IMG/VR virus record: IMGVR_UViG_3300035208_001992
DNA: 64,000 bases
Strand: one strand, 5' to 3'
Source: a virus
Taxonomy: Duplodnaviria; Heunggongvirae; Uroviricota; Caudoviricetes
Both the position numbers and the translations under genes were made by a program. Positions 1 to 57,008 of this stretch are shown one piece after another. The notes under the pieces were generated by a model. That model was given only the letters and a program-made list of their open reading frames with translations, did not search any database and was not told the DNA's origin. Position 1 is the stretch's first letter, and every line of letters starts with the position of its first letter.

Positions 1-1133
1 AAGAATACTTGGTCCATAGCAATCAATGCTTCTACGTTTTTGATGATATCATTCTCTGTCGGTCGACGACCTTCTATTTCGCTGTATGGCCCAATCACGA
101 ACGAATGATTGTCATCGTCATGGCATCTTGACGCTATTGCGTAATCTACGACGCGATCGTGCTCGTCAAGCAAAGGCCACAACTCAACAGTGATATGGAT
201 GCCAAATGATTTGTATCCGTACGCTAGTACGCTAAAGTGACTAAACGTTGAGTGCGGCTTGATTGACTGCGCTTTGAAGTCGACACCAGCAATCTTGATC
301 GTCTTACGCAATAAATGCGCAACCTCTTTGAGGCCAGGCACAGCAACTTCGGTCGCTACGCGAGCAGTGACTGCGTTTGCTATGCTACAAGCCTTGTCGT
401 ACTCCTTTTTGGATTCACTGATAGCATGGACTATTAGACTAACGTCGCTAGGACTGAGATTGCCAAGATTGAGATCGAGCGATCCGTTAAGGTCAGAGTC
501 CAAATGTATCGTTCTTGACGGCCTGTAACCAGGATACCCAATTGTGAATGTCCGCCTGCGATTATCTAGCTTTATGAACATGTTAACAATGCGCTTAATC
601 GGATTCTTGTTTTGACGTGGAAACGTCATAATGAATTTGACACCACATGTAAGTCCTGATCCTATCACTCGGTCAAACTTGCATGAGCTACCAAAAGTGT
701 CTTTGACGCTCTCTTTAATGACACTCACAATTCGGTTGCGGTTTCTGTTGTCGGTTGATTTGACTTCGACAAGCAGCTCATCGAACGCTTTTGACGACAT
801 CTCAAGCATGCTATATCTGTTCATGCTAGCCATGCTTTGTTTGAAGCGCTTGTGCGCGTACGCGCCATCGTCAAGCAAGATCGAAAAGACTATGACGCAG
901 CGATCGCTTAGCGCTTCTGAATTGAATGTAGCATAGATAGTTGCACGGAATTTTACGTCACCATCGACTACATGTTGCGCGTACGTGACTTCGACGTGAC
1001 GATCAACAGTCTGTTTGACACGCACTAACTTCACGTCTTTGCCGTTGATCTTGGTATTTATGAAGTCAACGCGCTTTGCCGACGCGAACGGATATGCTTC
1101 TTTTTCTGCGTTGATTCGTGCAATTGCGTGCAT
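1..1133 (-). CDS. Leader-motif cargo protein, two modules; partial, runs off the left edge; not in the supplied ORF track
   Basis: ATG at 1133 overlaps the upstream TGA (TGATG). Frame checked open to the window edge. Starts MHAIARINAE; internal TARVATE at 348-365. Confidence 0.85.
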   Translation of the reverse strand, partial: MHAIARINAEKEAYPFASAKRVDFINTKINGKDVKLVRVKQTVDRHVEVTYAQHVVDGDVKFRATIYATFNSEALSDRCVIVFSILLDDGAYAHKRFKQSMASMNRYSMLEMSSKAFDELLVEVKSTDNRNRNRIVSVIKESVKDTFGSSCKFDRVIGSGLTCGVKFIMTFPRQNKNPIKRIVNMFIKLDNRRRTFTIGYPGYRPSRTIHLDSDLNGSLDLNLGNLSPSDVSLIVHAISESKKEYDKACSIANAVTARVATEVAVPGLKEVAHLLRKTIKIAGVDFKAQSIKPHSTFSHFSVLAYGYKSFGIHITVELWPLLDEHDRVVDYAIASRCHDDDNHSFVIGPYSEIEGRRPTENDIIKNVEALIAMDQVF

Positions 1134-1507
1134 CAGAAACCTGCCTCAACGCGCTGAATAAGCTTAGCCATTGCAGAAACAATGTCGAGTTCAGTTGCGC
1201 GCTTACTCAACTGCATCGATTCACTTTTGCGAGGCATGCCAAAGTGCAAAGTTATCGAAAACTGACCGGAGCGATCACTGGCGCTTATGATGAAGCGCCC
1301 GAATCGATTGAAGTACGTTGATGTTAGCGCAATCGCTTGATTCGTCTCTTTGGTCGTCTTATTGACGCCTGTGATCATCTCTTTTGTGAAAGACATACGA
1401 GTGTCAATTTTGATCATGCTTGGCAAACGCTCGTACAGCTCTTCGATGCTTGCGTGATCTTCATGTGATACGCGGCTTGTGATCTGGTAGAAGGCTAGAG
1501 TGCTCAT
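1133..1507 (-). CDS. Leader-motif cargo protein, 124 aa
   Basis: N-terminus MSTLAFYQITSRVSHE; paralog of 1504-1875; ATGA-coupled. Confidence 0.85.
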   Translation of the reverse strand: MSTLAFYQITSRVSHEDHASIEELYERLPSMIKIDTRMSFTKEMITGVNKTTKETNQAIALTSTYFNRFGRFIISASDRSGQFSITLHFGMPRKSESMQLSKRATELDIVSAMAKLIQRVEAGF

Positions 1508-1876
1508 GACTCTGCTTCTATACGTTGCTTCACGAGTTTGATCATCGCTTCGTTGACGTCAGTGACTTTAGCTGATACATTAGTTATCCGCTGTTCCAGT
1601 TGTCTCTGAAATCCGCGCATTTTAGTGTCCCAAAAGAGATATCTAAGAACAAGCGATCCATTTGACTCGGCATATAGAATGAATTCAGTTTTGCGTCCAA
1701 CACAAAATTTGATGATCTTTCCGAGGTGCTTATCATCTTCTAACGAAAGATCATAGAGCATTGACCAACCTTTTATGATGAAAGGATCTGGCAATTCTTC
1801 GTACAGACCAACGATGCCTTTGCGTCGTTCACTAGCAACGCGACTCGTGATCTGGTAGAAGGCTAGAGTGCTCATG
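1479..1876. repeat. 30-bp identical direct repeat at 1479-1508 and 1847-1876
   Basis: gtgatctggtagaaggctagagtgctcatg at both positions; it covers the start of two adjacent genes. Confidence 0.95.
1504..1875 (-). CDS. Leader-motif cargo protein, 123 aa
   Basis: N-terminus MSTLAFYQITSRVASE; ATGA-coupled. Confidence 0.85.
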   Translation of the reverse strand: MSTLAFYQITSRVASERRKGIVGLYEELPDPFIIKGWSMLYDLSLEDDKHLGKIIKFCVGRKTEFILYAESNGSLVLRYLFWDTKMRGFQRQLEQRITNVSAKVTDVNEAMIKLVKQRIEAES

Positions 1877-2951
1877 CGTTAGCATCCATGAATTTGTCAA
1901 CAGCCTTCATTGCAGTTTTGACCGTATTCTCGAACTCGCGCTTGAATAGATCGATGATCTGCATGCGATCATGCGTTGTCGCATCGAATCGAGTGTCACC
2001 GCTTGCTATTGCTTCAGTAAGGCCTGGTTGAGCTATTACCCAAAGCATGCGTAGAGATTGCTGTGCTGTGTTGAATGATCTACCGCGTACACAAATGATG
2101 ATGCCGCGATATTCGAGCTCGATCGCAGGCTCGTTGGCGCCTAATGCTCCGTGTACTTGAAGTCCAAGCCGCTTAGCTGTTTTGGTTGCGCTCAGTATTG
2201 CGTCAGTCATGAAGTGATGCTCAATGCGCAGCAGTTGTGGGAACAGCTTTTCAAAGACATAGCCAACATGCCACGTGATCGTTTCACGTGTCTTTGACTT
2301 GTTCTTGAATGCCACTGACTTGTCTACACTAACGCCATTGTCGCGACGAAGTAAACGTGACACAGCATGTATCATGCGGTATCTGCCAGTGCCAGCCTCA
2401 AACAGATTGAAGAAGCAGATCATTGGGACGTCATGAAACGTGACACGCGCGCTATAGCTCATTATCTGTTTGCTCTTGAATGCTGTAAGCGGAAATTCAA
2501 TCCTTTGGCCGAACGCGCTGATAATAAGCTTCTTTGGCAAATCACTGTAGTCGAACTCTGACGGGTTCTCAGTACCTACGCGCGCAACGACTGATTTCTT
2601 GTTGACTGCTTCGATCACGTTTTCAATCATCTGCATGGACAGTTTTTCGCCTTTAGGCAGATGACTTTTGATCTGCTTTATGAGGCTGTCTCGCAGTGCT
2701 TGCGGAATACTGACGCTCTGTATGACGCGTTGTTGATCTGTATCTATCTCGATTTGTACATGCTTGTTGAGCTCGACTAGGTACTGGTAAACTACAGTGT
2801 TCTTATTGCGCAATGTCCACATGGACAGAGTGTTGTTTACGCGTATCTCTTCGCTTTCTTGCTTACCATTTGGTATTTGCGGTGGCACCGGGACTAGTTC
2901 ATTTTGTTCGCCAGCAACGCGCGCTTTGATGATTTGCAGTGCTGTTAGCAT
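1872..2951 (-). CDS. Leader-motif cargo protein, at least two modules, 359 aa
   Basis: MLTALQIIKARVAGE leader; internal VVARVGTE. Confidence 0.85.
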   Translation of the reverse strand: MLTALQIIKARVAGEQNELVPVPPQIPNGKQESEEIRVNNTLSMWTLRNKNTVVYQYLVELNKHVQIEIDTDQQRVIQSVSIPQALRDSLIKQIKSHLPKGEKLSMQMIENVIEAVNKKSVVARVGTENPSEFDYSDLPKKLIISAFGQRIEFPLTAFKSKQIMSYSARVTFHDVPMICFFNLFEAGTGRYRMIHAVSRLLRRDNGVSVDKSVAFKNKSKTRETITWHVGYVFEKLFPQLLRIEHHFMTDAILSATKTAKRLGLQVHGALGANEPAIELEYRGIIICVRGRSFNTAQQSLRMLWVIAQPGLTEAIASGDTRFDATTHDRMQIIDLFKREFENTVKTAMKAVDKFMDANA

Positions 2952-3634
2952 CAGTGATTCTCCGCAATCTCACGCTTAGCAGCGCTTAGAAGTTCGGTGC
3001 ATGCATTCATGATACGAGATCTGGACGTTGGCATTGGCAGCTTAGCTTCACGCTCAGCGCGTTCAACACGGTTGGTCGGTTTCATGATGCCGACTACAGC
3101 AGTTATTGTAAGTGTGCCTGCTGTTTGCCTGAATTCAATTCTTGAGAACTTTGGTTCGCGTTCATCAGATGTGAACTTATGGACGCGATTACCCATAGTG
3201 CCGGCTGACATTGAGTATTCGAAATTCGAGCCGACGCATGAGAAGCCATCGTACAAATCCATGATTATGCTGTTGACTTGCAGTTGCTCGCCAGCAACGC
3301 GCGCAGTCACAATGGTCACGTCATCTTCAGACGCGTCTTCAAGAGCACTGATGAGCTCGGCCTTGCTAACTGGATACGTGAGCTGGCCATGTTCGTACTG
3401 GCCATGGTTCTCACTTCTGAATTCAAAGAAACCTGACGGGTAGAACGTCAAGTAATTTATGTGCGCTGGACCGTGCTCTTCATGATATGAAACGAGGCCA
3501 GTAGGATCCGGACGCTCGAAACGTACCAAATGCGTACGGCCTATGCGAATGTGCATTGGCAAATCAGCTAACTTGCCGTAGACAGCGCGTTCACGATCGA
3601 CGCGCGCGATGATTGCATTGAGCGCTTGCGTCAT
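2951..3634 (-). CDS. Leader-motif cargo protein, two modules, 227 aa
   Basis: MTQALNAIIARVDRE leader; internal IVTARVAGE. Confidence 0.85.
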   Translation of the reverse strand: MTQALNAIIARVDRERAVYGKLADLPMHIRIGRTHLVRFERPDPTGLVSYHEEHGPAHINYLTFYPSGFFEFRSENHGQYEHGQLTYPVSKAELISALEDASEDDVTIVTARVAGEQLQVNSIIMDLYDGFSCVGSNFEYSMSAGTMGNRVHKFTSDEREPKFSRIEFRQTAGTLTITAVVGIMKPTNRVERAEREAKLPMPTSRSRIMNACTELLSAAKREIAENH

Positions 3635-6048
3635 AACCGGCGTCTCCGTTGTGCGATCTCTCGTGATTCTCGATGATTCCTTGTAGCTTCGTCCAACGCT
3701 GCCTTGAACTCACCAAGTGTTGATGGCATATCAAGCTTGCCGTGATGCGTCCAACCGTACAACGCGCGACTTGGCCTTTTGCGCGTCAACACGTTGATGT
3801 TGTAATCATGATCGATTGAGATCACAAAGCCAAGTTCACTGTCTTCTAGCTCGCCGCTGTATTGGGCAAGTATTTTAGCGTGACCATATGATACGCGCTC
3901 TATTGCGACGAGGTCAAGATTGAGGCGCTCAGGAAATTCGGCTTCACTTTTGATGATGTTGTCTTCCGACGCAACTCGAGATTCTACAGGCTTGTTAGCG
4001 AGCTTGCTTGCAGCATTCTTTGCGCGAGCATCAGCAACTTGCTTGTCGATCAACGGCGCAACACGCCGAAGCAGCTCATTCAAATTGAATGGATTCAACA
4101 TGCGGAAAGTCTTCATGTTGACATACGGAGGACCATGCACGTCAACGACAACGACGATTCCTTTAGTTGCGTCATGCGCGTCAAACAACTTGATGACTAC
4201 ATACGCGTCAACGTCTGTGATCTCACTGACTAAGTACGTTGCGTTCACAATGTCGCTGAATCTTTGCATGTTGTTCGAGAACTTGAGCACGTGATGTCCA
4301 GCTTTGAGTTCATCGACGTGCTCAAGATCATTTAACGTGGTGAGCTCTTGCTTTTCGCCAGCAACACGAGCTATAGTCACTTTCTTTGATTTGCGTTCTA
4401 CTTCTGCGAATAGTGCACGCAACGTTTTGAACAACATATGATAGCTCAGATTTGGTTTATTGATTACATAATCTACGCGTATGCCGTCACTAACAACGCC
4501 AACAACAAATTTGTCTTTTGAGAAGTCACGCGATACTTCTATACGCCGAAGCGTGTTGAAGTTGAAATTATTGACTACATCGCCATGTATGAAACTCACT
4601 TGCACAACGTGATCAAATGAGCGTGAACTACGACGAACATAGCGATCGTTGTCAAAGACCAAAACGTTACCAATGTCGTCTGGTCCTTCAATTGCGCCTT
4701 TGTCTTCACCAGCAACGCGGGCTTCAACGCGGGCTTCAACGTTCTTTTGCTTTAGCGCTTTTTCAAGAAGCTCTACAACGGTGCGCTTGAAGACAACAAT
4801 ATTGATTGGGTTAGTAATTACTGTCGAGCCAAATTCGCTGACTGCTCCTCCTCTATGATCATCATGAAACTGCTGAATGCACACATCAAGATCATTGATT
4901 TTCTCGCCTGGAAGACGCGGTTTTTGCGTTGGCGATACTTTGACAAACAGCGCTTTGCTAGATACGTTTTTGACGTCAAAAGCAATGCTAAGAACGTGGC
5001 CAAAAGGCGAAATGATGCGATCCATAGCTAGCGCGTATTTGCCGCACTGAATCTTGTCGATTTTTGACAGATCTTCAAAAGACATCTCGTTGTGCTCGCC
5101 AGCAACGCGAGCTTCGGTGAAGCCACCGTGCTGAGCTTTGTTCATCGCAGTCAAGCACATATTCATGAGCTGAGATTGCTTAAGAACATCTGTATTGAGC
5201 GTCACACGAGAAGTACTTGAGCCAAACCTAGCGTTCACGTCAACCCTGTTCAACTTTTCGTTTTCATTATTGTCTTTGAATAATGCGATGTAGAACGATT
5301 GAATCTGACGCGTTCCAGCACGCTCGAAGCTGACTGAAGTCATGTTAGACGCGATTAACTTACCAGTCTGTTTGTATTGTATACCGTTAACGGTGATGTC
5401 ACGCATGTTGACGAATTCTGCGAACGTTATCATCTGTATTTGCTCAGCGCCGACGCGAGCTTGCGCCACTTCTTGCAAGATCGGTTCGTGCAAGATCGGT
5501 TCGTGCGGTTCTGTCAGCATCGCGCTCTCAATTGAGACACCGCGTTTGGTCTTGATCTGCAAGATCTCGGTAGGTAGCGCTGTGATGCGCTCACGAGCAA
5601 TGCCGTTGTGCGCTTGAATATGCAGTGGCGTAGCGCCGTTCAGATTACGGATGAGCAGACGTCGAATTGGCAGCAGCCCAAGCAAATCGACTTTGTTCTG
5701 CGCGAGATAGTGCAATGCGCAATTGCCTTTGTCGTTCTGCAGTGACAATGTCAAGATGTCCTGCTTCAGCAACAGATCGAGCTCACGTGAGTATGGCTTC
5801 ACACAACGCGCAACAACGTGAACAACCAAGTTCACGCCTGCGTCATCAAGCTTCTGTCGAAGCTTCTCAGCGTCAGACACGAGCGTCAACAAGAAGTTTT
5901 CGTTCCAGTCTTCGACAAGCTGCTTCACTACGTCATTGGCTGGCTTTGTCTCTTTTGGATCAAGCCGCACAAGGAAGTTCACAGCAGTAGGACCGAAACC
6001 GATTTCGACTTGTTCTTCAGCGTCTCTGATGAAGTTTGAGTCAGTCAT
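3631..6048 (-). CDS. Putative polyprotein: N-terminal ankyrin-like repeats plus five motif-delimited modules
   Basis: Ankyrin-like GNCALHYLAQN and GATPLHIQAHNG; five internal ARVxxE/SRVASE copies. ATG at 6048 preferred over the TTG at 6060. Confidence 0.85.
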   Translation of the reverse strand: MTDSNFIRDAEEQVEIGFGPTAVNFLVRLDPKETKPANDVVKQLVEDWNENFLLTLVSDAEKLRQKLDDAGVNLVVHVVARCVKPYSRELDLLLKQDILTLSLQNDKGNCALHYLAQNKVDLLGLLPIRRLLIRNLNGATPLHIQAHNGIARERITALPTEILQIKTKRGVSIESAMLTEPHEPILHEPILQEVAQARVGAEQIQMITFAEFVNMRDITVNGIQYKQTGKLIASNMTSVSFERAGTRQIQSFYIALFKDNNENEKLNRVDVNARFGSSTSRVTLNTDVLKQSQLMNMCLTAMNKAQHGGFTEARVAGEHNEMSFEDLSKIDKIQCGKYALAMDRIISPFGHVLSIAFDVKNVSSKALFVKVSPTQKPRLPGEKINDLDVCIQQFHDDHRGGAVSEFGSTVITNPINIVVFKRTVVELLEKALKQKNVEARVEARVAGEDKGAIEGPDDIGNVLVFDNDRYVRRSSRSFDHVVQVSFIHGDVVNNFNFNTLRRIEVSRDFSKDKFVVGVVSDGIRVDYVINKPNLSYHMLFKTLRALFAEVERKSKKVTIARVAGEKQELTTLNDLEHVDELKAGHHVLKFSNNMQRFSDIVNATYLVSEITDVDAYVVIKLFDAHDATKGIVVVVDVHGPPYVNMKTFRMLNPFNLNELLRRVAPLIDKQVADARAKNAASKLANKPVESRVASEDNIIKSEAEFPERLNLDLVAIERVSYGHAKILAQYSGELEDSELGFVISIDHDYNINVLTRKRPSRALYGWTHHGKLDMPSTLGEFKAALDEATRNHRESREIAQRRRRL
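4714..4737. repeat. 12-bp tandem duplication encoding EARV EARV
   Basis: aacgcgggcttc twice. Confidence 0.95.
5474..5503. repeat. 15-bp tandem duplication encoding EPILH EPILQ
   Basis: tgcaagatcggttcg twice. Confidence 0.95.
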
Positions 6049-6110
6049 GGTCGAAAGCAAGAAAGGGCCGCAGTCGTAGACGGCAGCCCGAGTGAGTGAT
6101 TGTTGCTCAT
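6045..6110 (-). CDS. Possible 21-aa peptide MSNNHSLGLPSTTAALSCFRP
   Basis: ATG lies 1 nt after the upstream TAG; its TGA overlaps the next ATG (ATGA); it spans a terminator-like hairpin. Confidence 0.35.
   Translation of the reverse strand: MSNNHSLGLPSTTAALSCFRP
6059..6089 (-). terminator. Rho-independent terminator-like hairpin
   Basis: GGGCUGCCGUC-UAC-GACUGCGGCCC followed by UUUCUU. Confidence 0.6.
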
Positions 6111-6111
6111 G

Positions 6112-6291
6112 CTAAGAGTTCTCTTCTCTGTCTGGTACATAGAGCCGAAGTTGCGGTCTACTACGCGTTGGAGGAGGTGGAACAAGCTCGTTGAGCTGTT
6201 GTTCAAACAGTTCACGAACTAACGTATTCTCGCGCTCGGCTTCGAGCCGACGCAATCGATGCATTGGGCGTTCAGCTCTTTCTCGCATCAT
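6112..6291 (-). CDS. Hypothetical protein, 59 aa (below the track cutoff)
   Basis: MMRERAERPMHRLRRLEAERENTLVRELFEQQLNELVPPPPTRSRPQLRLYVPDREENS; ATGA overlap with the upstream gene; fills the gap. Confidence 0.6.
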   Translation of the reverse strand: MMRERAERPMHRLRRLEAERENTLVRELFEQQLNELVPPPPTRSRPQLRLYVPDREENS

Positions 6292-6983
6292 CCACGACCC
6301 TCGTGAGCAATCCGTTGTTTGATCCGCTGGCCCATGCGATCCATCACATCATTGAACTTGCTAGCGCTCATAGGAAACTTCAATGACTCTCCGTGCTCAA
6401 GCACAGCAACAAGAACTAAATCAATTGCAGCGCGAACAGAACCATCGTCAGTGAAGTTGATCACGACGCCTTTGTCTGGTCCGTAGCCTCGCTCACGATA
6501 GGCTCTCATTGATCTGGTTGACATCACTTCATCGTACATAGTTCCAGCGGCGTTGATCACATTTGGCAAGCTGTCGAAAGTGATCTTGAGATCTTCATGA
6601 TTGACTCGAGCCTCAACGTAGTTCTCTAAATGCACGTCAACACGCATGAGCACTTTAAGCAGCACGTCATTGAAAACTTTACGCTTGACTGGAAAACGAA
6701 ATTGACGTCTGCCTGTATCGTTTACACGCATATTGTCAATGTCTACTAACACGTCACCGTCTCTCCAGATGTCAACTTCAATCTCAGTGACGTGCCTGCC
6801 GTGACGCTCAACGTCTTCTTTGTACTCAGTGCACATTCCGTACAGCCTTTGCAATTGCAACTTGTGCTTTCCAAGCTCAATCACAGACGGTAGACTATCG
6901 TACTCGACCATATCGTCAAGTTCGCCAGCAACGCGTGCTTGCACGATGTCAAGCGCTGGCGAGATCCAAGTAGTGTCTACCAT
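6288..6983 (-). CDS. Leader-motif cargo protein, two modules, 231 aa
   Basis: SPALDIVQARVAGE leader; internal EARVNHE; both modules begin (Y/F)DSLP. Confidence 0.85.
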   Translation of the reverse strand: MVDTTWISPALDIVQARVAGELDDMVEYDSLPSVIELGKHKLQLQRLYGMCTEYKEDVERHGRHVTEIEVDIWRDGDVLVDIDNMRVNDTGRRQFRFPVKRKVFNDVLLKVLMRVDVHLENYVEARVNHEDLKITFDSLPNVINAAGTMYDEVMSTRSMRAYRERGYGPDKGVVINFTDDGSVRAAIDLVLVAVLEHGESLKFPMSASKFNDVMDRMGQRIKQRIAHEGRG

Positions 6984-8857
6984 ACTTTGCCTGCAATTCC
7001 AAATGCACGCTTGAAGTTTTCATTGCTTGAGTCAATCTTTGAACGAGCCATATTGTGTAAAGCTGTGCGTTGATGCAGACTCATGTTACGGTCACCATTC
7101 GTGCCGCTCACTTCGATTTCAATGATCTTGCCATTTGACGTCGAAATCTCGATCCATGTACCAGGCATGATTCTTGCTGTGTAGCTCGATCGATGCTCTC
7201 CATGGTCTTCATAGCGCCATATGATGTCATTGGCATCCTTGAACGTTGAGTGCGGTACAAGGTCAAACACTTTCTCGTTAGCGATGCGCGCAGTCACCGC
7301 TTTTGCGCCAATGCTCGATAGCAATGCTTGCAACGTTTCGAATGTTGCTGGCTTGTGATCGAATGGCTCAAGCTCTTCTCGACTGATTCCCTTTGAGCCG
7401 ACAATGAAGTAAATCAAGTCGAAGTTAGCTACGTCGAAACGTAGGATTCGTCCATCGCCTAGATTTGCTGTGTAGTGAGTCGAGCGTGAGCACTCATCCA
7501 CTTCGTGCTTGAATTGCACGCCGCTTAAAGTGAAGTCGGCCATTGGGACGCGTTCAACAGCTGTACTCGCAGTTGCTTGCGTATCGTTGCGCTTCATCCG
7601 CTTTGCATACTCAGCTAGCTTGAGCAACAGCGCTTCGCCCAAGACGACACGATCATTTGCAACGAGCTTTTTGAGCGCATCGCGATCCAAATGTTTGCCA
7701 ATCATTCCGGAAAGCTCAATGTCGACGATGCGTTGTTTCTCATCAGTCAAGACTAGCAGGAATGTGCCAAGCTCAACTCTGGTATGGTACGCAATGTGAT
7801 GGCGCTTGACATACTTGCCATTGCTATTTTTGATGTCAGCTTTTTGTGTCCACACAGCGAAATTGAATTTGCCAAGTTGAAAACTGACGTCATCATTGGT
7901 GTTAGCTGGTATTGGCAGTGGCTCATTATGCTCGCTAGAGACACGCGCAACAGCTTGATTCGGCACAGCTATTTCGATGATCTTGCGCAAGTTCTCTTGC
8001 GTTGCAGCTGGTCGGTCTTTGCAGAACTGCAGTAATGCCTCGCGAGAGTCGCCAAGTATCGTTGTTGAGCTGTTCTCTAGCCAAGCGGCATGAATGCGAT
8101 CATTGACGACGTCAAGCATGCAGTAGCGATTTGGACGCACACGTGCTCGATACCAGCGCTCATCGCGTTGATCGCTGCCTTCGAATGACCAGCTAAAACC
8201 ACCAAATTTGAATTCGTGTTGTGGCAACGCGTTGTTCAATTCAGCAGCCACACGCGCTGTCGCTGAATTGTGTGAAGGCACGAGTATGTCTAAGAATGCC
8301 TTCAAGTTCTTCAAGTTAGCGTCAGGCTCTGTTTCAAGTAGACTCGTCACTTTTTGCTTGCGAGCAGCAGGCTCTTCTCGAAGTTCTCCGTGAATCGTGA
8401 CGAACGCATCAGTGATCTTGTCATGATCGATCATTACGGAGAAATAGACGTTTGATCGCAGCGTTGTGTCGTAAAACGACAGGCCAGTAGCCATGTCAGT
8501 GCCTTCGGCTGGCTCCCATGATCGACCAAAGGCTTTGAAACGACGCTTTGGCAGCGGATCATCGTCTGCATCGAACGCAACGCGGCCAGCGACAAGACTG
8601 CTTGGCTGACCGCTAGTAGCGCGACGCTTGACCAACATCTTGCAGTCACTTAGCGTCTCAGCAAGTGCATCTGCATTGTCCTCTTCATCGCGATCGTATC
8701 GAGCCTTGGCACGCGCAAGCAACAATTGCTGTTGGAGCCAGCGCTCACAGCATAGTGAGAAGTCTGCAAGTGTGATCTTGTACTTTTGCCAGTCTTTGAC
8801 TACATCAATATAGCCACGACGTTCAAGATCTAACAGCAATTGCGTTGGAGTTTTCAT
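6977..8857 (-). CDS. Putative polyprotein of five diverged tandem modules, 626 aa
   Basis: Internal GRVAFD, ARVAAE, ARVSSE and ARIANE, each followed by a similar LP..F.(F/L)G module. Confidence 0.85.
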   Translation of the reverse strand: MKTPTQLLLDLERRGYIDVVKDWQKYKITLADFSLCCERWLQQQLLLARAKARYDRDEEDNADALAETLSDCKMLVKRRATSGQPSSLVAGRVAFDADDDPLPKRRFKAFGRSWEPAEGTDMATGLSFYDTTLRSNVYFSVMIDHDKITDAFVTIHGELREEPAARKQKVTSLLETEPDANLKNLKAFLDILVPSHNSATARVAAELNNALPQHEFKFGGFSWSFEGSDQRDERWYRARVRPNRYCMLDVVNDRIHAAWLENSSTTILGDSREALLQFCKDRPAATQENLRKIIEIAVPNQAVARVSSEHNEPLPIPANTNDDVSFQLGKFNFAVWTQKADIKNSNGKYVKRHHIAYHTRVELGTFLLVLTDEKQRIVDIELSGMIGKHLDRDALKKLVANDRVVLGEALLLKLAEYAKRMKRNDTQATASTAVERVPMADFTLSGVQFKHEVDECSRSTHYTANLGDGRILRFDVANFDLIYFIVGSKGISREELEPFDHKPATFETLQALLSSIGAKAVTARIANEKVFDLVPHSTFKDANDIIWRYEDHGEHRSSYTARIMPGTWIEISTSNGKIIEIEVSGTNGDRNMSLHQRTALHNMARSKIDSSNENFKRAFGIAGKVW

Positions 8858-9237
8858 TGGTCGTCTTGCCAGTCGCTCATGCGATCTTTGAACATCTTCT
8901 CAAGCGTTTCCATCGTCTGCTTAAACGTTCTTTGGCATTTGAGTGTCGACGTTTGGCTTTCACTATCTTCATCTTCGAGTTTGATTAAGCCAAGCTCAAT
9001 ATGGATGAAATCATTTTTCGCTTTATTGAAGGTCAAGTACAAATCTGGACGATGCTTGTCAGAGTGGTACTCAACAACGTAGTCTTCACGACGCTCTATC
9101 CAAAACAAGTGCCCATTGATACGCAGTTCTCTTGGATAGCTTTCGAAATCTTCAAGCGTTTTGTCATCGTCACGCTCGCTAGACGTACGCGCGACAACGT
9201 TGAAGCCTAGTTGACGTAGAGTTGCAGTGATGCTCAT
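8854..9237 (-). CDS. Leader-motif cargo protein, 127 aa
   Basis: MSITATLRQLGFNVVARTSSE; TAATG overlap at 9237 supports this start. Confidence 0.85.
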   Translation of the reverse strand: MSITATLRQLGFNVVARTSSERDDDKTLEDFESYPRELRINGHLFWIERREDYVVEYHSDKHRPDLYLTFNKAKNDFIHIELGLIKLEDEDSESQTSTLKCQRTFKQTMETLEKMFKDRMSDWQDDQ

Positions 9238-10034
9238 TATAAACCTCGTGGCCAAGTTTTGCGTACATCAATCCAGTCTTGCTTAATTATACGTGTTTTC
9301 AGCAAGTCACTAACTTTGTCAAGCGCCTCTTTGAAAGTCGTTTTGGCTGGCAGTGCTCGCAGTTCATTGAGTCTGTCTTCGTCATCATCGTAACGTTTTC
9401 CAACATCTATTTGGACGCTACCGCTAGGATGCTGCGTGAAGATGATATAGACTGTATGATCACTATACTTGCCGTAGTACGTTGTACCTTGATGATCGCG
9501 CTCTTCGCATTCGAACTTGATCTTGTTGAGCATGAACTTTTGAGGCATGCGTTCAAACGAGTCGATCGTTGGATTCGCGTCGTACTCAGGCGAGACACGT
9601 GCAACCACGCGAGTTGGTTTTGCTGTGATCACAAGTGGTGGTTGTGTGCTGCGTTTAAGCTCTGCGTTCAACCGCTTGAGCAAATCATCCAAAGGGATTG
9701 GAAACACGCTCTCGTTTGATATGAGCCGGCGCATTAAACGCGTAGGATCTTTTGTACCTGCTTCACGCGCGCGTACAGTGACTGTCTGCGTGCCGCCGCT
9801 ATCATTGTTTTGTATGAATGGTATTTTGTACGTGACATCATCGATATCACATGAATACTCGACGAGTGAAAACGAATGATAGCCTGTATCGACGCTTCCA
9901 CGCTTAGCAACATGGCCGTCCAGATAGAGTATTGCTGGCAGTTGACCGATGCGCTCGATGTTCTTTTGCTCGTTGGCAGCGCGAGCAGCCACGCTAAAAC
10001 CAAGAAGCGCCAGACGTTGTACAACGTTAGTCAT
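9237..10034 (-). CDS. Leader-motif cargo protein, two modules, 265 aa
   Basis: MTNVVQRLALLGFSVAARAANE; internal VVARVSPE; ATGA overlap at 10034. Confidence 0.85.
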   Translation of the reverse strand: MTNVVQRLALLGFSVAARAANEQKNIERIGQLPAILYLDGHVAKRGSVDTGYHSFSLVEYSCDIDDVTYKIPFIQNNDSGGTQTVTVRAREAGTKDPTRLMRRLISNESVFPIPLDDLLKRLNAELKRSTQPPLVITAKPTRVVARVSPEYDANPTIDSFERMPQKFMLNKIKFECEERDHQGTTYYGKYSDHTVYIIFTQHPSGSVQIDVGKRYDDDEDRLNELRALPAKTTFKEALDKVSDLLKTRIIKQDWIDVRKTWPRGL

Positions 10035-17645: not shown

Positions 17646-17677
17646 TTTTGAGACTTTCTGCTGTGCGTGTCCATATA

Positions 17678-18070
17678 CTAAGAGTTCCTTGAATGCTGCT
17701 GTATCAGCCGGGCTAACTTGTGATCTTCTTTGGCAGCGACAAGCAGTTCTTTTAGCCCAACGCGTTGATTTGCTGTATGTTGCGATGCGCTTGAGTAGAT
17801 GCCTTCCCATGTATGTGGATCAGTCCGGACGTCAAATGAGTAATGAGCATGATCGCGGTAGAAAAAGATTCGCATGATCTGTTTATGCTCGTAAACAACG
17901 GCACCTCCACCGAAGAGCGAGTCAACGACATACATATCACAGAAGTAATCCCAGACAATTCCACCAACCGTGATCGTCTTTGGCTTGTTAGCCCATGACT
18001 GCTCTTCAGGTTCAGCAGCTACGCGTGCAACGCATAAGCCAAGCTGCGCTAAACGCTTTTGCATGTTCAT
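17678..18070 (-). CDS. Leader-motif cargo protein, 130 aa
   Basis: MNMQKRLAQLGLCVARVAAE. Confidence 0.85.
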   Translation of the reverse strand: MNMQKRLAQLGLCVARVAAEPEEQSWANKPKTITVGGIVWDYFCDMYVVDSLFGGGAVVYEHKQIMRIFFYRDHAHYSFDVRTDPHTWEGIYSSASQHTANQRVGLKELLVAAKEDHKLARLIQQHSRNS

Positions 18071-52833: not shown

Positions 52834-53232
52834 TCAATTGATCGCGTCATGCTTTTCCAGATACTCATAGATTTCTCTGCTAGCATTCGGGATCGCTTTG
52901 TTGATCTGGTCAGCGATTGATGCTGGATCATCTATAGTGCTCTTCGACTCTATGTTCTGCGCCGTGAAGATGAAGAACCAGTCGTAATTGCCTTTGAGCG
53001 CGCGATAGCCAAGATTGAGCATACGCGCGTCACTGATCGAGCGGCTGAGATGATCCAAATGAACTTTGGTAAGACCAAGCCCGCACGGAAAGCGTATGCG
53101 CACTTCAGAATGTCTATCAAGCACAGCAATCATGTTCTTGATTGTGTCAGCCGTGACTTTGCGGTAACGCTCGAGACCAATGCGCGCAATTACGTGCATC
53201 CCGTGCCGCGCTGCTAGGTGCTCAAGTATCAT
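52834..53232 (-). CDS. Class B leader cargo protein, 132 aa
   Basis: MILEHLAARHGMHVIARIGLE. Confidence 0.8.
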   Translation of the reverse strand: MILEHLAARHGMHVIARIGLERYRKVTADTIKNMIAVLDRHSEVRIRFPCGLGLTKVHLDHLSRSISDARMLNLGYRALKGNYDWFFIFTAQNIESKSTIDDPASIADQINKAIPNASREIYEYLEKHDAIN

Positions 53233-53581
53233 CGCCAGCTCGCGCAAGATCGATCATTGGAACCGTTTTGCCTGCTAACTCATGTGTGCAATCACCAAGA
53301 AACTGGATCATGCCATCTTTCACCCATGAGTGACAGATATATGCCTTTTGAGGAGGCAATGGAGCGCCTGCAATGTACGCATCATGCTCTTCGTCTGTGA
53401 TGCTGAGGAAACCTTTGCACATCACTGACGGCATAAGCGTTGGCGCTTCGAAACTGCCGTTCCATGTCCAGCACGGATGAGGCACGTCTGGACCTGCAAC
53501 AGTGATGCCATGATTCTCGCCGCAGCCTGGACATTCGAACCAAAGCGACTTTCCTTGATCTATTAGTCGTACCTTCTTCAT
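53222..53581 (-). CDS. DUF6527-like Cys/His metal-binding protein, 119 aa
   Basis: FECPGCGENH, WTWNGSFEAPTLMPSV, CHSWVKDGMIQFLGDCTH; family recognised from memory. Confidence 0.7.
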   Translation of the reverse strand: MKKVRLIDQGKSLWFECPGCGENHGITVAGPDVPHPCWTWNGSFEAPTLMPSVMCKGFLSITDEEHDAYIAGAPLPPQKAYICHSWVKDGMIQFLGDCTHELAGKTVPMIDLARAGDDT

Positions 53582-53583: not shown

Positions 53584-54396
53584 TCAGTCCTTTGCTCGTT
53601 TGACTTCGTCGACGATTGCGAATAGTGACGCGAGCGGAAGTGCTTTGCGACCACGGAGTGTGCTGACAAAGATCTCAGTTGAACCACTTGGTTGTCTTGC
53701 GAACACGACTTGTGCGTCCAACGGCTTGTTGAATGTCCAGACGCTCTGTTGATTGCCTTCAGGACTTTCAGTCGCGCCAATCGACGGATCTGAGAAGTTA
53801 GCTAATCCAAAGCCTTGCAATGCAACGTGTGCAGCAAGCGTGGTCAAGTTGTTGTCTGAAAGCGCTTTTGCGTGCTTCTGCTTAGCTTCGCTGATCATGA
53901 CTGCGACTTTGCGTCGTACTTCAGAAAGAGCTGGCGCGTCTGCCCAAGTGAAGTAGTGGACGTTCCATGACTCAGACAACTCGATCGATTCGCGAGATGC
54001 AGGCCAACCAGAAGCTTCTAAGATATCTGCAATAGCGCGTACACGAGCTTGAGCCCAGAAATTGCCAGCGACAGATTTGAGCAACTGAGACAACGCACGA
54101 CGTACAGCAACATGCAACAAGCGAATGTCCATGACCTCGCCATGCAATTTCGTGATGTCAACATGCGCTGGCAGACCATCAGAGTGTGACGCTCGCCAAA
54201 TGATCGGTGAGCGCGCTGTGATGCCATCAAGCTCGCGTTCTGGAATCGAGAACAGCTCGATCTCAACAAGACCGCGCTCTACCGGAATCGCGCGACGACC
54301 AGCAGGTTGGTAACCACCAGACATGCGAGCCACAGCTTCAAGCAGATCTTCTTCAGTTAGCTCCTCGATCTCTCCGCCATATGTGACGTAACGCAT
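53584..54396 (-). CDS. Hypothetical protein, 270 aa
   Basis: Long coupled ORF. Confidence 0.75.
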   Translation of the reverse strand: MRYVTYGGEIEELTEEDLLEAVARMSGGYQPAGRRAIPVERGLVEIELFSIPERELDGITARSPIIWRASHSDGLPAHVDITKLHGEVMDIRLLHVAVRRALSQLLKSVAGNFWAQARVRAIADILEASGWPASRESIELSESWNVHYFTWADAPALSEVRRKVAVMISEAKQKHAKALSDNNLTTLAAHVALQGFGLANFSDPSIGATESPEGNQQSVWTFNKPLDAQVVFARQPSGSTEIFVSTLRGRKALPLASLFAIVDEVKRAKD

Positions 54397-55019
54397 CAGT
54401 TTTCGTCCAATGGAAGGATCTTAGCGAACTCATCGTATAGCTCATTAGAGCTCTTGATCGCAGAAATTAAGCGTGGCTTAATCGCTTCGACTGTTGCTTT
54501 TGTGGCTTTGCCATCATGGTCAGCATGTAGGTCATATGTTGCGGCGATGAACGCGCTTGTAGAGTGACGCGTGCTTGGGATACGCGCAAAGTGGAGCTGA
54601 GTTGCATGTCTGCGCGCAGCGTCTGCAATCCCCTCGCAAAGCACAATGCCCGCGAGACTATTATGTGTTGCGTGAGCTGGACTAGTTAGCACAATTTGCA
54701 TAATGCCTCGCGCGTCAAATGAGCAAAGCACGCTTTCTTCATCTAGAAGATTCACAATTTGTTGATTGCCTTCCTCAATTACTTCGCCAAGTAGCACAGA
54801 AAGATTTGACATGTTTCCGTCGAGGTAATTCTCGATGCATGCGACGACATGATCATTGCCCTCCAATGCAACGCGCGCTTCTACTTTGAGACCATGCTTC
54901 TTGATAATCTTATCTACTGACATATTAGCCTCTCGATTTTGTGGCCTGACGGCCTTATAGCGTTTGATGATCGTCAAGCCATAGTAATCGTGCAAGCTAA
55001 CGCGTAACTTGTCGATCAT
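54396..55019 (-). CDS. Class B leader cargo protein; paralog of 55563-56060
   Basis: MSVDKIIKKHGLKVEARVALE (alternative start 54923); NLSVLL...LCSFDARG vs NVSVLL...ICSLECRG. Confidence 0.8.
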   Translation of the reverse strand: MIDKLRVSLHDYYGLTIIKRYKAVRPQNREANMSVDKIIKKHGLKVEARVALEGNDHVVACIENYLDGNMSNLSVLLGEVIEEGNQQIVNLLDEESVLCSFDARGIMQIVLTSPAHATHNSLAGIVLCEGIADAARRHATQLHFARIPSTRHSTSAFIAATYDLHADHDGKATKATVEAIKPRLISAIKSSNELYDEFAKILPLDEN

Positions 55020-55045: not shown

Positions 55046-55558
55046 CTAGACGTCGTTGATAATTGAGTCTTGGATCAATTCCCAGACTTTCGCAGAAGCG
55101 CTCGGCGACTTGGAGAGTGCATCAATCGTAATCTTGACTAAGATCTTGTGTTTAGCAATAGGGCGCGACGCAAACAGAATCAAGATCTCGCGTCCACAAT
55201 CGAAGATCTTTAAGAAGACAGGCTTGTTTCCGTTACGGCGCTTAATTTTGCTGATCTCCTCGCGCGTCGATTCTCGATCATCGATGGACAGATCTTTTGT
55301 CGAGGCAGGATAGCCATCTGCGTGCACAGCAATATTGTTTTTGACGCGATACACGATGCCTGCACGATCAAACGCGTTAGCGATCTCAATCATGTCATCG
55401 CGATCAGCATCCATAAAAGCTAGAAACAGCCGCTCGATATTTCCTTCTTGCTTTCCAAGAAATTCTCGTATATCTTCAATGCGTGAGATGTCCTCTTCGA
55501 CTGATACACGCGCAACAACTAACTGATGACGTTGGGCAATGGCATGGATTTATTTCAT
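55046..55558 (-). pseudogene. Class B leader gene interrupted by TAA at codon 3, or using a non-canonical start
   Basis: ATG AAA TAA ATC CAT GCC... reads MK*IHAIAQRHQLVVARVSVE, in frame with track ORF 55046-55414. Confidence 0.7.
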
Positions 55559-55562
55559 GATG

Positions 55563-56060
55563 TCACTCGTCATCGTTGACGAACATAGCAAGTGCTCGTG
55601 TCAGCCTGGATGACGATCCAAGCGCTGCTATAAGCTTGTCACCAATCTCTTTGAGATTGCTACGTGTCAAAGAACCATCACTTACGTTGTTTGCAAGTTT
55701 GTATGGCAGCACAAGCCATGAGTCTCTCCACCGGCGCACAGATAATTGTGCTTGTGGACGATTTTGAGCTGCCACAGCAATCGCTTCAATAACACTAGCA
55801 GTGTCATGTTGCTCAGTGCTGACCAAAAGTGCTTGAGAGCCACGACATTCTAAAGAACAAATGACATCCGCGTCGTCAAGCGCGTCCATTGCGATGCTAC
55901 CAGCTGAAGTGCCGTCCTCGACGCGCTCAAATAACAAGACACTGACGTTCATGACATCGCTCTCGAACAGTTGCTTTAGCTTGTTTGCAACTTGATCTTG
56001 CTCAGATCCAACTCGAGCGATGACTAACCCATACTTTGCAGCGATTTTATGCGCGTTCAT
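55563..56060 (-). CDS. Class B leader cargo protein, 165 aa
   Basis: MNAHKIAAKYGLVIARVGSE. Confidence 0.85.
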   Translation of the reverse strand: MNAHKIAAKYGLVIARVGSEQDQVANKLKQLFESDVMNVSVLLFERVEDGTSAGSIAMDALDDADVICSLECRGSQALLVSTEQHDTASVIEAIAVAAQNRPQAQLSVRRWRDSWLVLPYKLANNVSDGSLTRSNLKEIGDKLIAALGSSSRLTRALAMFVNDDE

Positions 56061-56472
56061 CGATGTCCTCCAGTACCTCAACAAAGTCTTCAAGCGTCAT
56101 CAATTTGTGAGTCGTAGTTGCTTTCAACCAATCGATTGCTCTGGCTATGATGTCATCTCGAGTCTTGACCATTGTATATGATGACCAAGCAAGTACTGGT
56201 GTCTTGTCATGTACCTTGGACAATGAAATGCATGGCCCATATTTACTCGCGCATGCAGTTGTAACCATTTCAGCTATGCTGTCGCCAAGTTCTGCAGCTG
56301 TCACGTCAACGATATAGAAGTCACGTAGGACTCCCATAGTCAATAGATGCTCGATGACGCTTGCATTGTCGAGATGCTTGTCTAACAGCTTGCGAGCACG
56401 CGTTTCATGATTTTCTTCATTGCCGGCTCGCGCAAGCGCTAGCCCATGCCGTTTTAGAATCTTATGGAACAT
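56047..56472 (-). CDS. Class B leader cargo protein, 141 aa
   Basis: MFHKILKRHGLALARAGNE. Confidence 0.85.
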   Translation of the reverse strand: MFHKILKRHGLALARAGNEENHETRARKLLDKHLDNASVIEHLLTMGVLRDFYIVDVTAAELGDSIAEMVTTACASKYGPCISLSKVHDKTPVLAWSSYTMVKTRDDIIARAIDWLKATTTHKLMTLEDFVEVLEDIDERA

Positions 56473-56884
56473 TGGCAAAGTACTCCATAATGGCATTGAA
56501 TAGATCGCGATGCTTTTGCGAATGCTTTACTAAAGCATCTCGTAGTTCACGGAAGTTCTTGTACTTGGAGATGATGAACACGTTGTCATACTTCATTGGA
56601 TGATAATCATTGGCAGTGCTGTCATCCAATTCGCGCATCTCGACACCAGCGCAAAATGATGTCTCCATCAGCTCGCCAACGTCAGTAGAAAGAAGAGGAT
56701 TGGCTGAATGAATTCCAATTTCCCACAATGTCGATCGAAGATCACTGTCCTCGAATGCTTCAATCAAGAATTCTGCTAAATGAAGAGTTAACGCGTTGAC
56801 AACATTTGTGCTTAGAGCTTCTGGCTTTTCGCTGTGTGAACGCGCAACAGCTAAGCCGTGTCTAGCAGCGATGTTAGATAGCAT
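56462..56884 (-). CDS. Class B leader cargo protein, 140 aa
   Basis: MLSNIAARHGLAVARSHSE; GGAG RBS. Confidence 0.85.
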   Translation of the reverse strand: MLSNIAARHGLAVARSHSEKPEALSTNVVNALTLHLAEFLIEAFEDSDLRSTLWEIGIHSANPLLSTDVGELMETSFCAGVEMRELDDSTANDYHPMKYDNVFIISKYKNFRELRDALVKHSQKHRDLFNAIMEYFANVP

Positions 56885-56915
56885 GGTCAATCTCCGTCAT
56901 CTAGAATTCGAAGGT

Positions 56916-57008
56916 CTAAAGTGTTGAAGACATCGATGAGATAGTCTCGTTCGGCGCGCCTGCGACAACGAAACCGTATTTAGCTGAAATCTCGTGAATG
57001 CAGTCCAT
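56916..57008 (-). CDS. Leader-only mini-ORF, 30 aa (not in the track)
   Basis: MDCIHEISAKYGFVVAGAPNETISSMSSTL; GGGA upstream. Confidence 0.6.
   Translation of the reverse strand: MDCIHEISAKYGFVVAGAPNETISSMSSTL

Follow-up and report, generated by a model that had tools for sequence, protein, structure and literature searches.

The window analysed here is a 64,000-nt stretch (positions 24034-88033) of the 278,473-bp record of an uncultured giant phage. Its minus strand encodes many otherwise unrelated proteins, hereafter carriers, that share a short peptide, defined strictly by the expression [AGS]R[VITF][ASGN].E. Run on the minus-strand ORFs, this expression finds 38 sites in 28 ORFs, rising to as many as ~53 sites in ~36 ORFs when near-variants (ARKASE, ARSHSE, ARAGNE, ARAANE, ARRSQE, ARVDRE, ARVAAD, ARTGAD and others) are included. 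The ~46 occurrences in 33 ORFs counted by hand in an earlier sequence-only reading are thus a fair estimate, and all five of its example peptides are found in window ORFs. The carriers are listed below in window coordinates, together with the portal and terminase large subunit (TerL) genes.

1..1133, minus: multi-site carrier, 511 aa, 3' part (runs off the window); ARINAE at residue 5, ARVATE at residue 257, third site outside the window
1133..1507, minus: single-module carrier, 124 aa; N-terminal leader ending SRVSHE
1504..1875, minus: single-module carrier, 123 aa; N-terminal leader ending SRVASE; paralogue of gene 1133..1507
1872..2951, minus: two-site carrier, 359 aa; ARVAGE ends at residue 15, ARVGTE at residue 128
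2951..3634, minus: carrier, 227 aa; leader variant ARVDRE, internal ARVAGE from residue 111
3631..6060, minus: polyprotein, 809 aa; five internal sites starting at residues 201, 317, 447, 564 and 694, spaced 116-130 aa
5443-5460, 5095-5112, 4705-4722, 4354-4371, 3964-3981, minus: DNA of the sites in the 809-aa polyprotein
6288..6983, minus: two-site carrier, 231 aa; ARVAGE leader, internal ARVNHE
6977..8857, minus: polyprotein, 626 aa; ARVAAE, ARVSSE and ARIANE from residues 201, 304 and 523; two neighbouring modules alike
8854..9255, minus: class-B leader carrier, 133 aa; LGFNVV-ARTSSE
9237..10103, minus: carrier, 288 aa; leader variant ARAANE, internal ARVSPE
10031..10570, minus: class-B leader carrier, 179 aa; LGFVVT-GRVASE
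10599..11600, minus: class-A leader carrier, 333 aa; ARFAGE; belongs to the aligned carrier family
11597..12370, minus: short-leader carrier, 257 aa; MNTAI-ARFAGE
12372..13247, minus: class-A leader carrier, 291 aa; ALDIVQ-ARINLE; the L007 orthologue is 43% identical over the BLAST-aligned protein but has the same final 12 leader residues
13244..14062, minus: class-A leader carrier, 272 aa; ARIAAE
14059..14970, minus: class-A leader carrier, 303 aa; ARVAGE
14952..15923, minus: class-A leader carrier, 323 aa (modelled); ARVAGE ends at residue 15; R11 and E15 among the only four nearly invariant family columns
16842..17810, minus: carrier, 322 aa; ARISAE from residue 66 of the longest ORF
17678..18070, minus: class-B leader carrier, 130 aa; LGLCV-ARVAAE
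18067..18966, minus: two-site carrier, 299 aa; ARVASE leader, internal ARTAGE
20885..21373, minus: class-A leader carrier, 162 aa; ARTASE
26329..28509, minus: portal protein (context); phrog_16240, E 1e-114; no strict site
29613..30059, minus: class-B leader variant with Asp end, 148 aa; SGLTIV-ARTGAD
30056..32131, minus: terminase large subunit (context); phrog_17415, E 1e-107; no motif
32154..32756, minus: class-B leader variant with Asp end, 200 aa; HRLVVT-ARVAAD
36085..36609, minus: leader carrier, 174 aa; ARTAGE; L004 orthologue with identical last 12 leader residues
37954..38463, minus: class-B leader carrier, 169 aa; SGLAIV-GRVASE
38426..38818, minus: class-B leader variant, 130 aa; FGFTVV-ARKASE; PSSM 15.6, the best non-strict score
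38815..39336, minus: class-B leader variant, 173 aa; HNLVV-ARRSQE
52834..53247, minus: class-B leader carrier, 137 aa; HGMHVI-ARIGLE
54396..55019, minus: class-B leader carrier, 207 aa; HGLKVE-ARVALE
55046..55591, minus: class-B leader carrier, 181 aa; HQLVV-ARVSVE
55563..56093, minus: class-B leader carrier, 176 aa; YGLVI-ARVGSE
56047..56496, minus: class-B leader variant, 149 aa; HGLAL-ARAGNE
56462..56890, minus: class-B leader variant, 142 aa; HGLAV-ARSHSE

In the whole record the strict expression matches 51 times, whereas 300 within-protein shuffles give 4.4 +/- 2.2 matches (maximum 13). A block of ~70 kb at 12-81 kb of the genome holds 47 of these in 34 of its 80 genes, compared with four, about the chance level, in the remaining 287 genes; the block's opposite-strand frames give 0-1 matches. 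The window opens inside this block, which begins ~12 kb further upstream in genome coordinates. The portal and TerL genes lie within it, on the same strand and interleaved with carriers. As previously noted for TerL, neither contains a strict site. Sheath and tube, in which the earlier reading also saw no motif, were identified by no HMM. At the opposite end of the genome, and not beside head genes, another 23 genes form a tandem family whose proteins start with a related motif, M-[ASPT]-R-[HRA]-[AM]-x-E.

The motif had been described as usually lying near the protein start. This applies to 26 of the 47 block sites (Glu within 35 residues of the start), which close leaders of 10-30 residues, but the other 21 are internal. 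Upstream of the site the leader is of one of two types, either a helix of the form 'M-x-T-A-L-x-I-V-x' or a segment of the form 'I-A-x-K-H-G-L-x-V-V', and two carriers end their leader in Asp (ARTGAD, ARVAAD). Internal sites fall at module boundaries of polyproteins, up to five in each, with modules of roughly 100-130 residues. At these sites the leader and Met are missing and the P8-P1 core is all that remains, in many cases unaltered (one protein has three copies of ARVAGE). With about 45% of the sites internal, ARVxxE is better read as a cut site, and any 'address' would be found in the helix upstream.

Over the 47 sites, the logo shows Ala at P6 in 40, V/I/T/F at P4, A/S/G/N at P3 and hydrophobic residues at P8 and P7; Arg at P5 and Glu at P1 are present in all 47, being fixed by the definition of the expression. 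There is zero information C-terminal to the Glu. A P8-P1 pattern with nothing after the Glu is what a protease subsite would show, which supports a cut site. Four Ala codons and five Arg codons are used, with GAA:GAG at 27:20, and there is a mild preference for GTT at P4 (20 of 31 Val) and GCT at P3 (18 of 31 Ala). As synonymous codons vary, conservation acts at the peptide rather than the DNA level.

Beyond the Glu the proteins diverge, as the sequence-only reading had claimed: BLASTP and phmmer link only four similar pairs among 69 post-site segments. None of the carriers has a recognisable function, and one has no homologue in a word search of 5.8 billion proteins. Only one carrier family has distant homologues, and here the Arg and Glu of the motif are among the few columns that barely vary. 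In two of these homologues an extra module precedes the shared module, with the motif between both. An AF2 model of the carrier at 14952-15923 (mean pLDDT 81) scores below 50 over residues 1-15 and is folded from residue 18, so its leader is predicted to be an unstructured tail ending at the Glu.

Comparison with related phages shows that the core changes in concert. Identity to the nearest relative is 66% over the final 12 residues of the leader and 37% over the aligned carrier proteins, compared with 69% for the portal and 80% for TerL. This relative keeps the core ARV[AS]xE. In a relative with a 55%-identical portal the core is ARAPSxE, and in two others (53% and 50% portal identity) it is AA[AST]E-P, on leaders and at up to five internal sites of one protein. 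The upstream parts 'ALxLVQ' and 'HxxxVV' persist across all of these relatives. As the core switches across all carriers of a phage together, one trans-acting recogniser per phage is indicated, and the sequence comparison supports the motif behaving as the recognition site of a single such factor. In the AA[AST]E-P lineages, Pro would occupy P1' if the cut came after the Glu. Many serine proteases reject Pro at this position, so the scissile bond in these lineages is uncertain.

A candidate for this factor is encoded outside the window, where the sequence-only reading had expected a prohead protease. The gene, at genome positions 184480-185400, is present as a single copy in the record and matches phrog_18299 'head maturation protease' (E 1.4e-43). 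There is no hit to PF03420, and the match to the gp21 sequence profile is weak (hhalign E 0.14). The predicted fold, from a model of moderate confidence (pLDDT 62.5), is nearest to T4 gp21 and herpesvirus assemblin, with T4 gp21 (5jbl) the best structural match (Z 9.9, rmsd 2.8, 126 residues aligned), followed by the VZV (Z 8.7) and HCMV (Z 6.8) proteases. Two invariant residues, His129 and Ser184, are separated by 55 positions, the same gap as between His85 and Ser140 of T4 gp21. The genes that follow encode a scaffold-like acidic protein, a virion protein and the major capsid protein (MCP). No ARVxxE site occurs in the MCP, portal or scaffold-like protein, in which minimal [ASG]-x-E matches are at chance level only.

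On this evidence, [hydrophobic x2]-A-R-V-[A/S/G]-x-E is probably the site at which the one head-maturation protease of this phage, with its predicted gp21/assemblin fold, acts on its substrates. The shared peptide is most likely a cutting signal of this enzyme, and it probably serves in loading as well. By analogy with the T4 capsid-targeting sequence (CTS), the N-terminal leader would dock a carrier to the prohead core and then be removed after the Glu. Long carriers would enter the prohead as polyproteins, and cuts between modules would give separate small proteins. The cargo would comprise 40 or more fast-evolving proteins that probably belong to the head interior or are ejected. Against this reading, the MCP and portal lack the extended motif, the protease is encoded ~100 kb away from the carriers and on the opposite strand, and 40 to 65 different cargo species are many for one capsid.

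It is unlikely that the peptide is instead an uncleaved docking signal, a strand or helix that would attach to one partner shared by all carriers (scaffold, portal, chaperone or another assembly) and stay on the mature proteins, with internal copies as gene-fusion relics. Such relics are conceivable, as neighbouring carrier genes are tightly packed with overlaps of a few bases, such that loss of a stop codon would create internal copies, and a module found at the N-terminus in one phage can be internal in a different one; the lack of the motif in MCP and portal also fits. However, retention of the P8-P1 core at internal sites that have lost leader and Met suits a cut site rather than a decaying relic, an invariant final Glu with nothing conserved after it suits Glu-specific head proteases, and the modelled leader is disordered. 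Just as improbable is cytoplasmic processing by the same or another protease, freeing small host-takeover or anti-defence proteins with nothing packaged. The polyprotein layout with modules of ~110-130 aa, the very fast evolution of carrier bodies and the 23-gene family with its related start, placed away from head genes, agree with this, but carriers of the main block alternate with portal and TerL on one strand, the sole protease found is of the head-maturation type, and known gp21-type enzymes work within proheads (PMC9026906).

Plain paralogy, in which one ancestral gene was duplicated often and the N-terminus is merely its slowest-evolving part, would require no recognition system. A few carriers are detectable paralogues, and the sites share the mild codon preference at P4 and P3, yet six residues are fixed while most bodies are unalignable, the motif also marks internal boundaries, and all copies in a genome switch core together while orthologous leader helices are kept, which independent drift would not produce. 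These observations already disfavour this explanation, and we regard it as very unlikely. A secretion or export signal, or a nucleic-acid element such as a translation start region or DNA repeat, is scarcely credible. The N-terminal position in many genes would suit either, but the leader has no hydrophobic core, a TM-like stretch is found in only two of 43 carriers, and the 21 internal sites, varying synonymous codons and lack of other-strand matches already speak against both.

The proposed cleavage by the head-maturation protease can be compared with three known systems. In T4, a CTS of 10 residues suffices for packaging, targeting and processing are assigned to different residues, and Asp at the last position stops cutting but not targeting (PMC9026906). 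The T4 CTS of IPI, IPII, IPIII and Alt, removed by gp21, resembles the present leaders as a short N-terminal propeptide ending in Glu on unrelated, fast-evolving mature parts, with a protease of the same fold (predicted here) and separable targeting and cutting determinants within the leader. The Asp-ending variants found here also recall the T4 substitution that blocks cutting only (PMC9026906). In contrast to T4, P3 is small (A/S/G/N) rather than Leu or Ile, P5 Arg is fixed, there are two upstream leader types, carriers number at least 40 where T4 has a handful, and many sites are internal, giving polyproteins. Nor is the phage T4-like: TerL and portal have phiRSL1/PaBG-type relatives, and there is no PF03420 match.

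The proteases of phiKZ, 201phi2-1 and T4 all cut after Glu (PMC10052503, PMC5694885), and for SPN3US gp245 the cut follows A-x-E, Val being favoured at P4 (PMC10052503). The P4-P1 core V-[A/S/G]-x-E found here equals the published SPN3US cleavage logo (PMC10052503), supporting a similar cut after Glu, as at the S/A/G-x-E motif of the proteases of this group (gp175/gp245, MEROPS S80). Also shared are the short propeptides at the N-termini of paralogous proteins that are internal or ejected, and several cuts per protein (PMC10052503, PMC5694885). However, the present site is longer and far stricter (A-R at P6-P5, hydrophobic P8/P7), and MCP and portal, whose sites fit the motif in phiKZ and SPN3US, lack the extended form here. 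The earlier claim that scale and motif length exceed those of T4 and phiKZ holds against the 14 sites in nine proteins published for SPN3US, with at least ~50 sites in ~40 proteins here. The 95 records that TerL or portal matched include no phiKZ-like phage.

Among cultured phages, PaBG (Baikalvirus) and the phiRSL1/Yoloswag/Y3/JA29 jumbo group are closest in TerL, portal, MCP and protease (~28-36% identity). Neither the 100 kb of PaBG examined nor the portal regions of Aura and JA29 are enriched in ARVxxE-type sites, and the literature considered defines no cleavage motif for the PaBG/phiRSL1 group. The gene order of protease, large acidic protein, ~240-aa virion protein and MCP is the same, and proteolytic processing is known for virion proteins of PaBG, with more than one cut in some of them (PMC7412058). 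The system would represent a very large form of the T4 CTS or phiKZ propeptide kind, in a phiRSL1/PaBG-type lineage.

The strict pattern [AGS]R[VITF][ASGN].E occurs 51 times in the whole record (simple gene set of 367 ORFs), whereas shuffling residues within each protein gives 4.4 ± 2.2 sites and a maximum of 13. This confirms the sequence-only reading, which had placed the motif on many phage proteins. That reading had also raised the question of whether the motif is as frequent elsewhere in the genome. It is not: 47 of the 51 sites lie in 34 of the 80 genes at 12–81 kb of the genome, while the remaining four are spread over the other 287 genes, close to what chance would give. In its three opposite-strand frames, the 12–81 kb block holds 0–1 strict sites. 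The block starts ~12 kb ahead of the window's first base, and the window itself contains 38 strict sites in 28 minus-strand ORFs by regular expression. When the sites are turned into a PSSM, it also picks up near-variants within the block (ARKASE, ARAANE, ARAGNE, ARSHSE, ARRSQE, ARVDRE, ARVAAD, and ARTGAD), and including them brings the window total close to the earlier hand count of about 46 sites in 33 ORFs. The strict match ARIAEE, which begins at residue 251 of the ORF at window 49616-50641 (minus strand), sits outside any leader context and could have arisen by chance.

The record is linear, 278,473 bp long and an estimated 74% complete, with the window covering its bases 24034-88033. Every substantial ORF of the window is on the minus strand. 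Two of these have PHROGs matches to head genes:

Window 26329-28509, minus strand: portal (E 1e-114).
Window 30056-32131, minus strand: large terminase, TerL (E 1e-107).

The rest of the window is almost without PHROGs or Pfam matches, with no family for any carrier (an ORF with an ARVxxE-type site) or for most neighbouring genes. The Pfam sheath (PF04984) and tube (PF06841) models give no match in the genome. TerL and portal match 95 cultured jumbo phage records at ~28–36% identity, including Erwinia Yoloswag/Y3/pEa_SNUABM, Dickeya JA29, P. putida phages, phiRSL1, BcepSauron, Vibrio GR7B, and PaBG. None of the 95 is phiKZ-like or T4-like, and by these TerL and portal matches the phage falls outside the phiKZ-like group. 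A 20-kb portion of the window had no megablast match among 50,697 phage records, nor did a portal-based scan of IMG/VR return one.

Several other genes of this phage and its relatives are of note. A 334-aa ORF outside the window (genome 217112-218116, plus strand) is a second, partial terminase-like gene matching TerL of Aura (E 7.5e-10) and PaBG (E 4.4e-19), and is probably a nuclease-domain gene. A 1468-aa protein (window 59426-63832, minus strand) with no PHROG match carries at least three internal repeats marked TFEFD(S/T)DG. The repeat recurs, at 38% identity over 167 aa, in a 389-aa protein encoded upstream of the window (genome 7932-9101), and the 1468-aa protein may be a fibre or decoration protein. 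The distant portal homologues P0101, P0104-P0106, P0131, and P0137 are 820–1250 aa long with intein and LAGLIDADG domains (PF14890, PF14528), and are intein-containing portal genes. In one related phage (L011:8665-9924, ENA ERZ27254250 contig) an IS605 OrfB/TnpB-type gene with a Cas12f-like TNB domain lies on the opposite strand directly upstream of the portal gene.

Within the site, numbered P1 at the Glu and upwards towards the N-terminus, the logo (n = 47) has V/A/I at P8, V/T/I/Q at P7, Ala at P6 (40/47), Arg at P5 (47/47), V (31), I (8), T (5), or F (3) at P4, A (31), S (7), G (6), or N (3) at P3, mostly G/S/A at P2, Glu at P1 (47/47), and no information downstream; P6, P5, P4, P3, and P1 are constrained by the regular expression itself, while P8, P7, P2, and the drop after the Glu are independent of it. 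The earlier description of the sites as usually lying near the protein start holds for 26 of the 47, with the Glu at residues 10–34, but not for the other 21, which are internal. Ahead of the core, N-terminal carriers show either a short helix-like M-x-T-A-L-x-I-V-x segment (class A) or a longer I-A-x-K-H-G-L-x-V-V segment (class B). Internal sites keep the P8–P1 core alone. Five of these are found 116–130 residues apart in an 809-aa protein (window 3631-6060) and three in a 626-aa protein (window 6977-8857). In silico cutting of all carriers at their sites yields 69 segments, most commonly of 100–130 aa.

Asp replaces the terminal Glu in two class-B leaders, namely ARTGAD (window 29613-30059, minus strand) and ARVAAD (window 32154-32756, minus strand). 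Carriers show no charge or pI bias against other proteins (p = 0.6), and the basic signature of T4 internal proteins is absent. The block also encodes two low-complexity Ala/Pro/Lys-rich proteins with AAPKKAA and PPPP runs (window 20351-20830 and 15920-16849, both minus strand). Both are kept in the L004/L007 relative at 45–61% identity and may serve inside the head as DNA-binding or linker proteins.

Selection acts on the peptide, neither at the DNA level nor by descent. Codons at the sites vary synonymously, with four Ala codons, five Arg codons, and a GAA:GAG ratio of 27:20, and only a mild preference for GTT at P4 and GCT at P3. Divergence of the proteins after the Glu, also put forward in the sequence-only reading, is borne out, as the leader-free segments are mostly unalignable and only four similar pairs exist among the 69 (phmmer E < 0.01; BLASTP was also run). 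A 323-aa carrier (window 14952-15923) illustrates this divergence. A word-indexed search of 5.8 billion proteins returned only the carrier itself and the ESM Atlas gave no usable match, while an exhaustive profile search found 12 relatives. Only four columns of the family alignment are nearly invariant: the motif Arg and Glu, one Phe, and one Gly. Two homologues have an extra module ahead with its own N-terminal (T/A)RVASE, placing ARVAGE between the modules. The AlphaFold model of this carrier has a pLDDT of 81.4, with residues 1–15, which are the leader through the Glu, below 50 and the first strand from residue 18. A fold search with the model gave no convincing match, with a best PDB Z of 5.8 to generic alpha/beta folds and nothing below E 0.001 in BFVD.

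A prohead protease had been predicted to lie outside the window, and a candidate was found at genome 184480-185400 (plus strand). This is the one ORF matched by the annotated head maturation protease of the P. putida phage Aura, and it matches phrog_18299 'head maturation protease' at E 1.4e-43. The record contains no second copy. The genes run protease, very acidic protein, 240-aa virion protein (phrog_16710), and major capsid protein (MCP; phrog_2522), an order also found in PaBG. The acidic protein is as follows:

Genome 185450-187072 (9450-11072 of L003, the fetched stretch with this locus), plus strand: 540 aa, GEGE/DDSE runs in the first 250 residues; counterparts of 528 and 584 aa in two relatives.

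Encoded between protease and MCP, it is probably the scaffold.

With 21 homologues as input, AlphaFold models the protease at moderate confidence (pLDDT 62.5) and predicts a fold of the herpesvirus assemblin/gp21 type. VIA-align matches the model to T4 gp21 (5jbl_A; Z 9.9, rmsd 2.8 Å over 126 aligned residues), VZV protease (1vzv; Z 8.7), and HCMV protease (8j3s; Z 6.8), with unrelated folds at Z ≤ 6.0, and the top three Foldseek hits are chains of gp21 5jbl (E 0.013). H129 and S184 are invariant in the 21 homologues. In a weak hhalign alignment to T4 gp21 (E 0.14), S184 pairs with T4 Ser140, and the His–Ser spacing is 55 in both enzymes; we take His85 and Ser140 to be the catalytic residues of gp21. 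By sequence profile the protease is not a member of the gp21 family, as Pfam Peptidase_S77 (PF03420) has no match in the genome, and the protease family profile found nothing meaningful among PDB sequences.

No extended site is present in the MCP, portal, scaffold-like protein, or protease of this phage, and none is conserved in the MCP, scaffold-like protein, 240-aa virion protein, or protease of three related phages. The MCP and portal contain minimal [ASG]-x-E matches only, which are not conserved among the three related MCPs. The A-R-V extension and hydrophobic P8/P7 thus belong to the cargo set alone, where they may contribute affinity or targeting instead of setting the minimal specificity of the enzyme. 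Separately, residues 14–19 of the MCP (L003:11980-13104, outside the window) read N-A-R-F-T-P, conserved in two ARV-type phages, which resembles the first half of the carrier motif without the Glu.

Five lineages were compared using flanking DNA obtained via metagenomic portal homologues. In the nearest (L004/L007; portal 69% and TerL 80% identical) orthologous genes retain their ARV[AS]xE leaders, with the last 12 leader residues 66% identical versus 37% for the aligned proteins. In L012 (portal 55% identical) the core becomes ARAPSxE, with RAPS observed 5 times versus 0.06 expected. In L005/L008 and L011 (portals 53% and 50% identical) it is AA[AST]E followed by Pro, with AAEP observed 17 times versus 0.29 expected. 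Leaders carry this form (...NALELVQ-AAAE-P, minimally MAAEP), and a 1497-aa protein has it at as many as five internal sites. The scissile bond in these lineages is uncertain because a cut after the Glu would precede Pro. No motif is enriched within the stretches fetched from L006 and L013 (portals 43–44% identical), and no comparable 4-mer in PaBG (100 kb) or the portal regions of Aura and JA29. Motif type and protease can be paired in the ARV lineage only, in which the portal contig and a 79%-identical protease come from one sample, SRR28640812.

Across lineages the upstream leader helices remain recognisable, yet all copies of the core switch together. Simple paralogy could be proposed for this pattern, but a concerted core change with the helices kept speaks against it and indicates many substrates tracking one recogniser.

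A tandem array of 23 genes (~200–340 aa each) lies ~150 kb past the window end (genome 238043-255581, minus strand). All 23 proteins start M-[ASPT]-R-[HRA]-[AM]-x-E (e.g. MARHAYE, MPRHMHE), with a conserved h-x-h-x-G-h strand ~30 residues on. This seven-residue start resembles the ARVAxE core, with Arg at P5 and Glu at P1. The link to the ARV carriers is one of motif resemblance, as an HMM of the array family matches its own members and neither the carriers nor the loci of relatives. From this resemblance, the array proteins could be additional substrates whose leader is minimal.

Comparative evidence gives good support to ARVxxE as a predicted cleavage site, and we infer by analogy that the leaders would target the capsid and their cargo would form an injected payload. 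A fuller reading is offered tentatively, at somewhat below an even chance. An uncultured jumbo lineage related to phiRSL1 and PaBG would load 40–65 hyper-variable small proteins into its head, many as polyproteins of ~120-aa modules. The two-part leader would carry a phage-specific cut-site code (ARVAxE, ARAPSxE, AAAE-P) co-evolving with the prohead protease, and the 23-gene M-A-R-H-x-x-E array would belong to the same system. If true, close relatives would have mutually orthogonal cargo-processing systems. If the cleavage-and-loading reading holds, a simple sequence rule would list the head-carried proteins of this phage; such proteins usually escape annotation, and host defences encounter them before any other phage protein. 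The concerted switch seen in sister phages would then amount to a natural experiment in the co-evolution of a protease with dozens of substrates. The leaders would further offer candidate tags with which to pack foreign cargo into large capsids, a use already made of the T4 capsid-targeting sequence (CTS).

The T4 CTS is regarded as a means of loading diverse proteins, and the first 10 residues of IPIII are enough for packaging (PMC9026906). Residues 4 and 7 of the CTS act in targeting and residues 8 and 10 in processing, with Asp at position 10 stopping cutting while leaving targeting and packaging intact (PMC9026906). The leaders described here are similar in being short N-terminal propeptides ending in Glu (residues 10–34, 26 sites) ahead of unrelated mature parts. 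The conserved CTS versus the loose L/I-x-E is also a similar split to that between the strict cargo site and the MCP and portal here. They differ from the (L/I)-x-E motif of gp21 at P3, which is A (31), S (7), G (6), or N (3) in the 47 sites and never L or I. The enzymes of phiKZ, 201phi2-1, and T4 all cut after Glu (PMC5694885). The SPN3US enzyme gp245 cleaves behind A-x-E, favouring Val at P4, at 14 sites in nine proteins, mostly releasing N-terminal propeptides, two of them of 20–24 residues (PMC10052503). The small P3, the Glu at P1, and the Val at P4 of the carriers match this S80-protease system (S/A/G-x-E), in which the MCP and portal are themselves cut at the motif. PaBG virion proteins are processed too, some at several sites, with the MCP losing ~20% of its mass (PMC7412058). 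By analogy, the carrier system would work like the T4 CTS and the phiKZ/SPN3US propeptide systems in a phage that is a member of neither group, distinguished by its scale, strict eight-residue site, modular polyproteins, and lineage-specific recoding.
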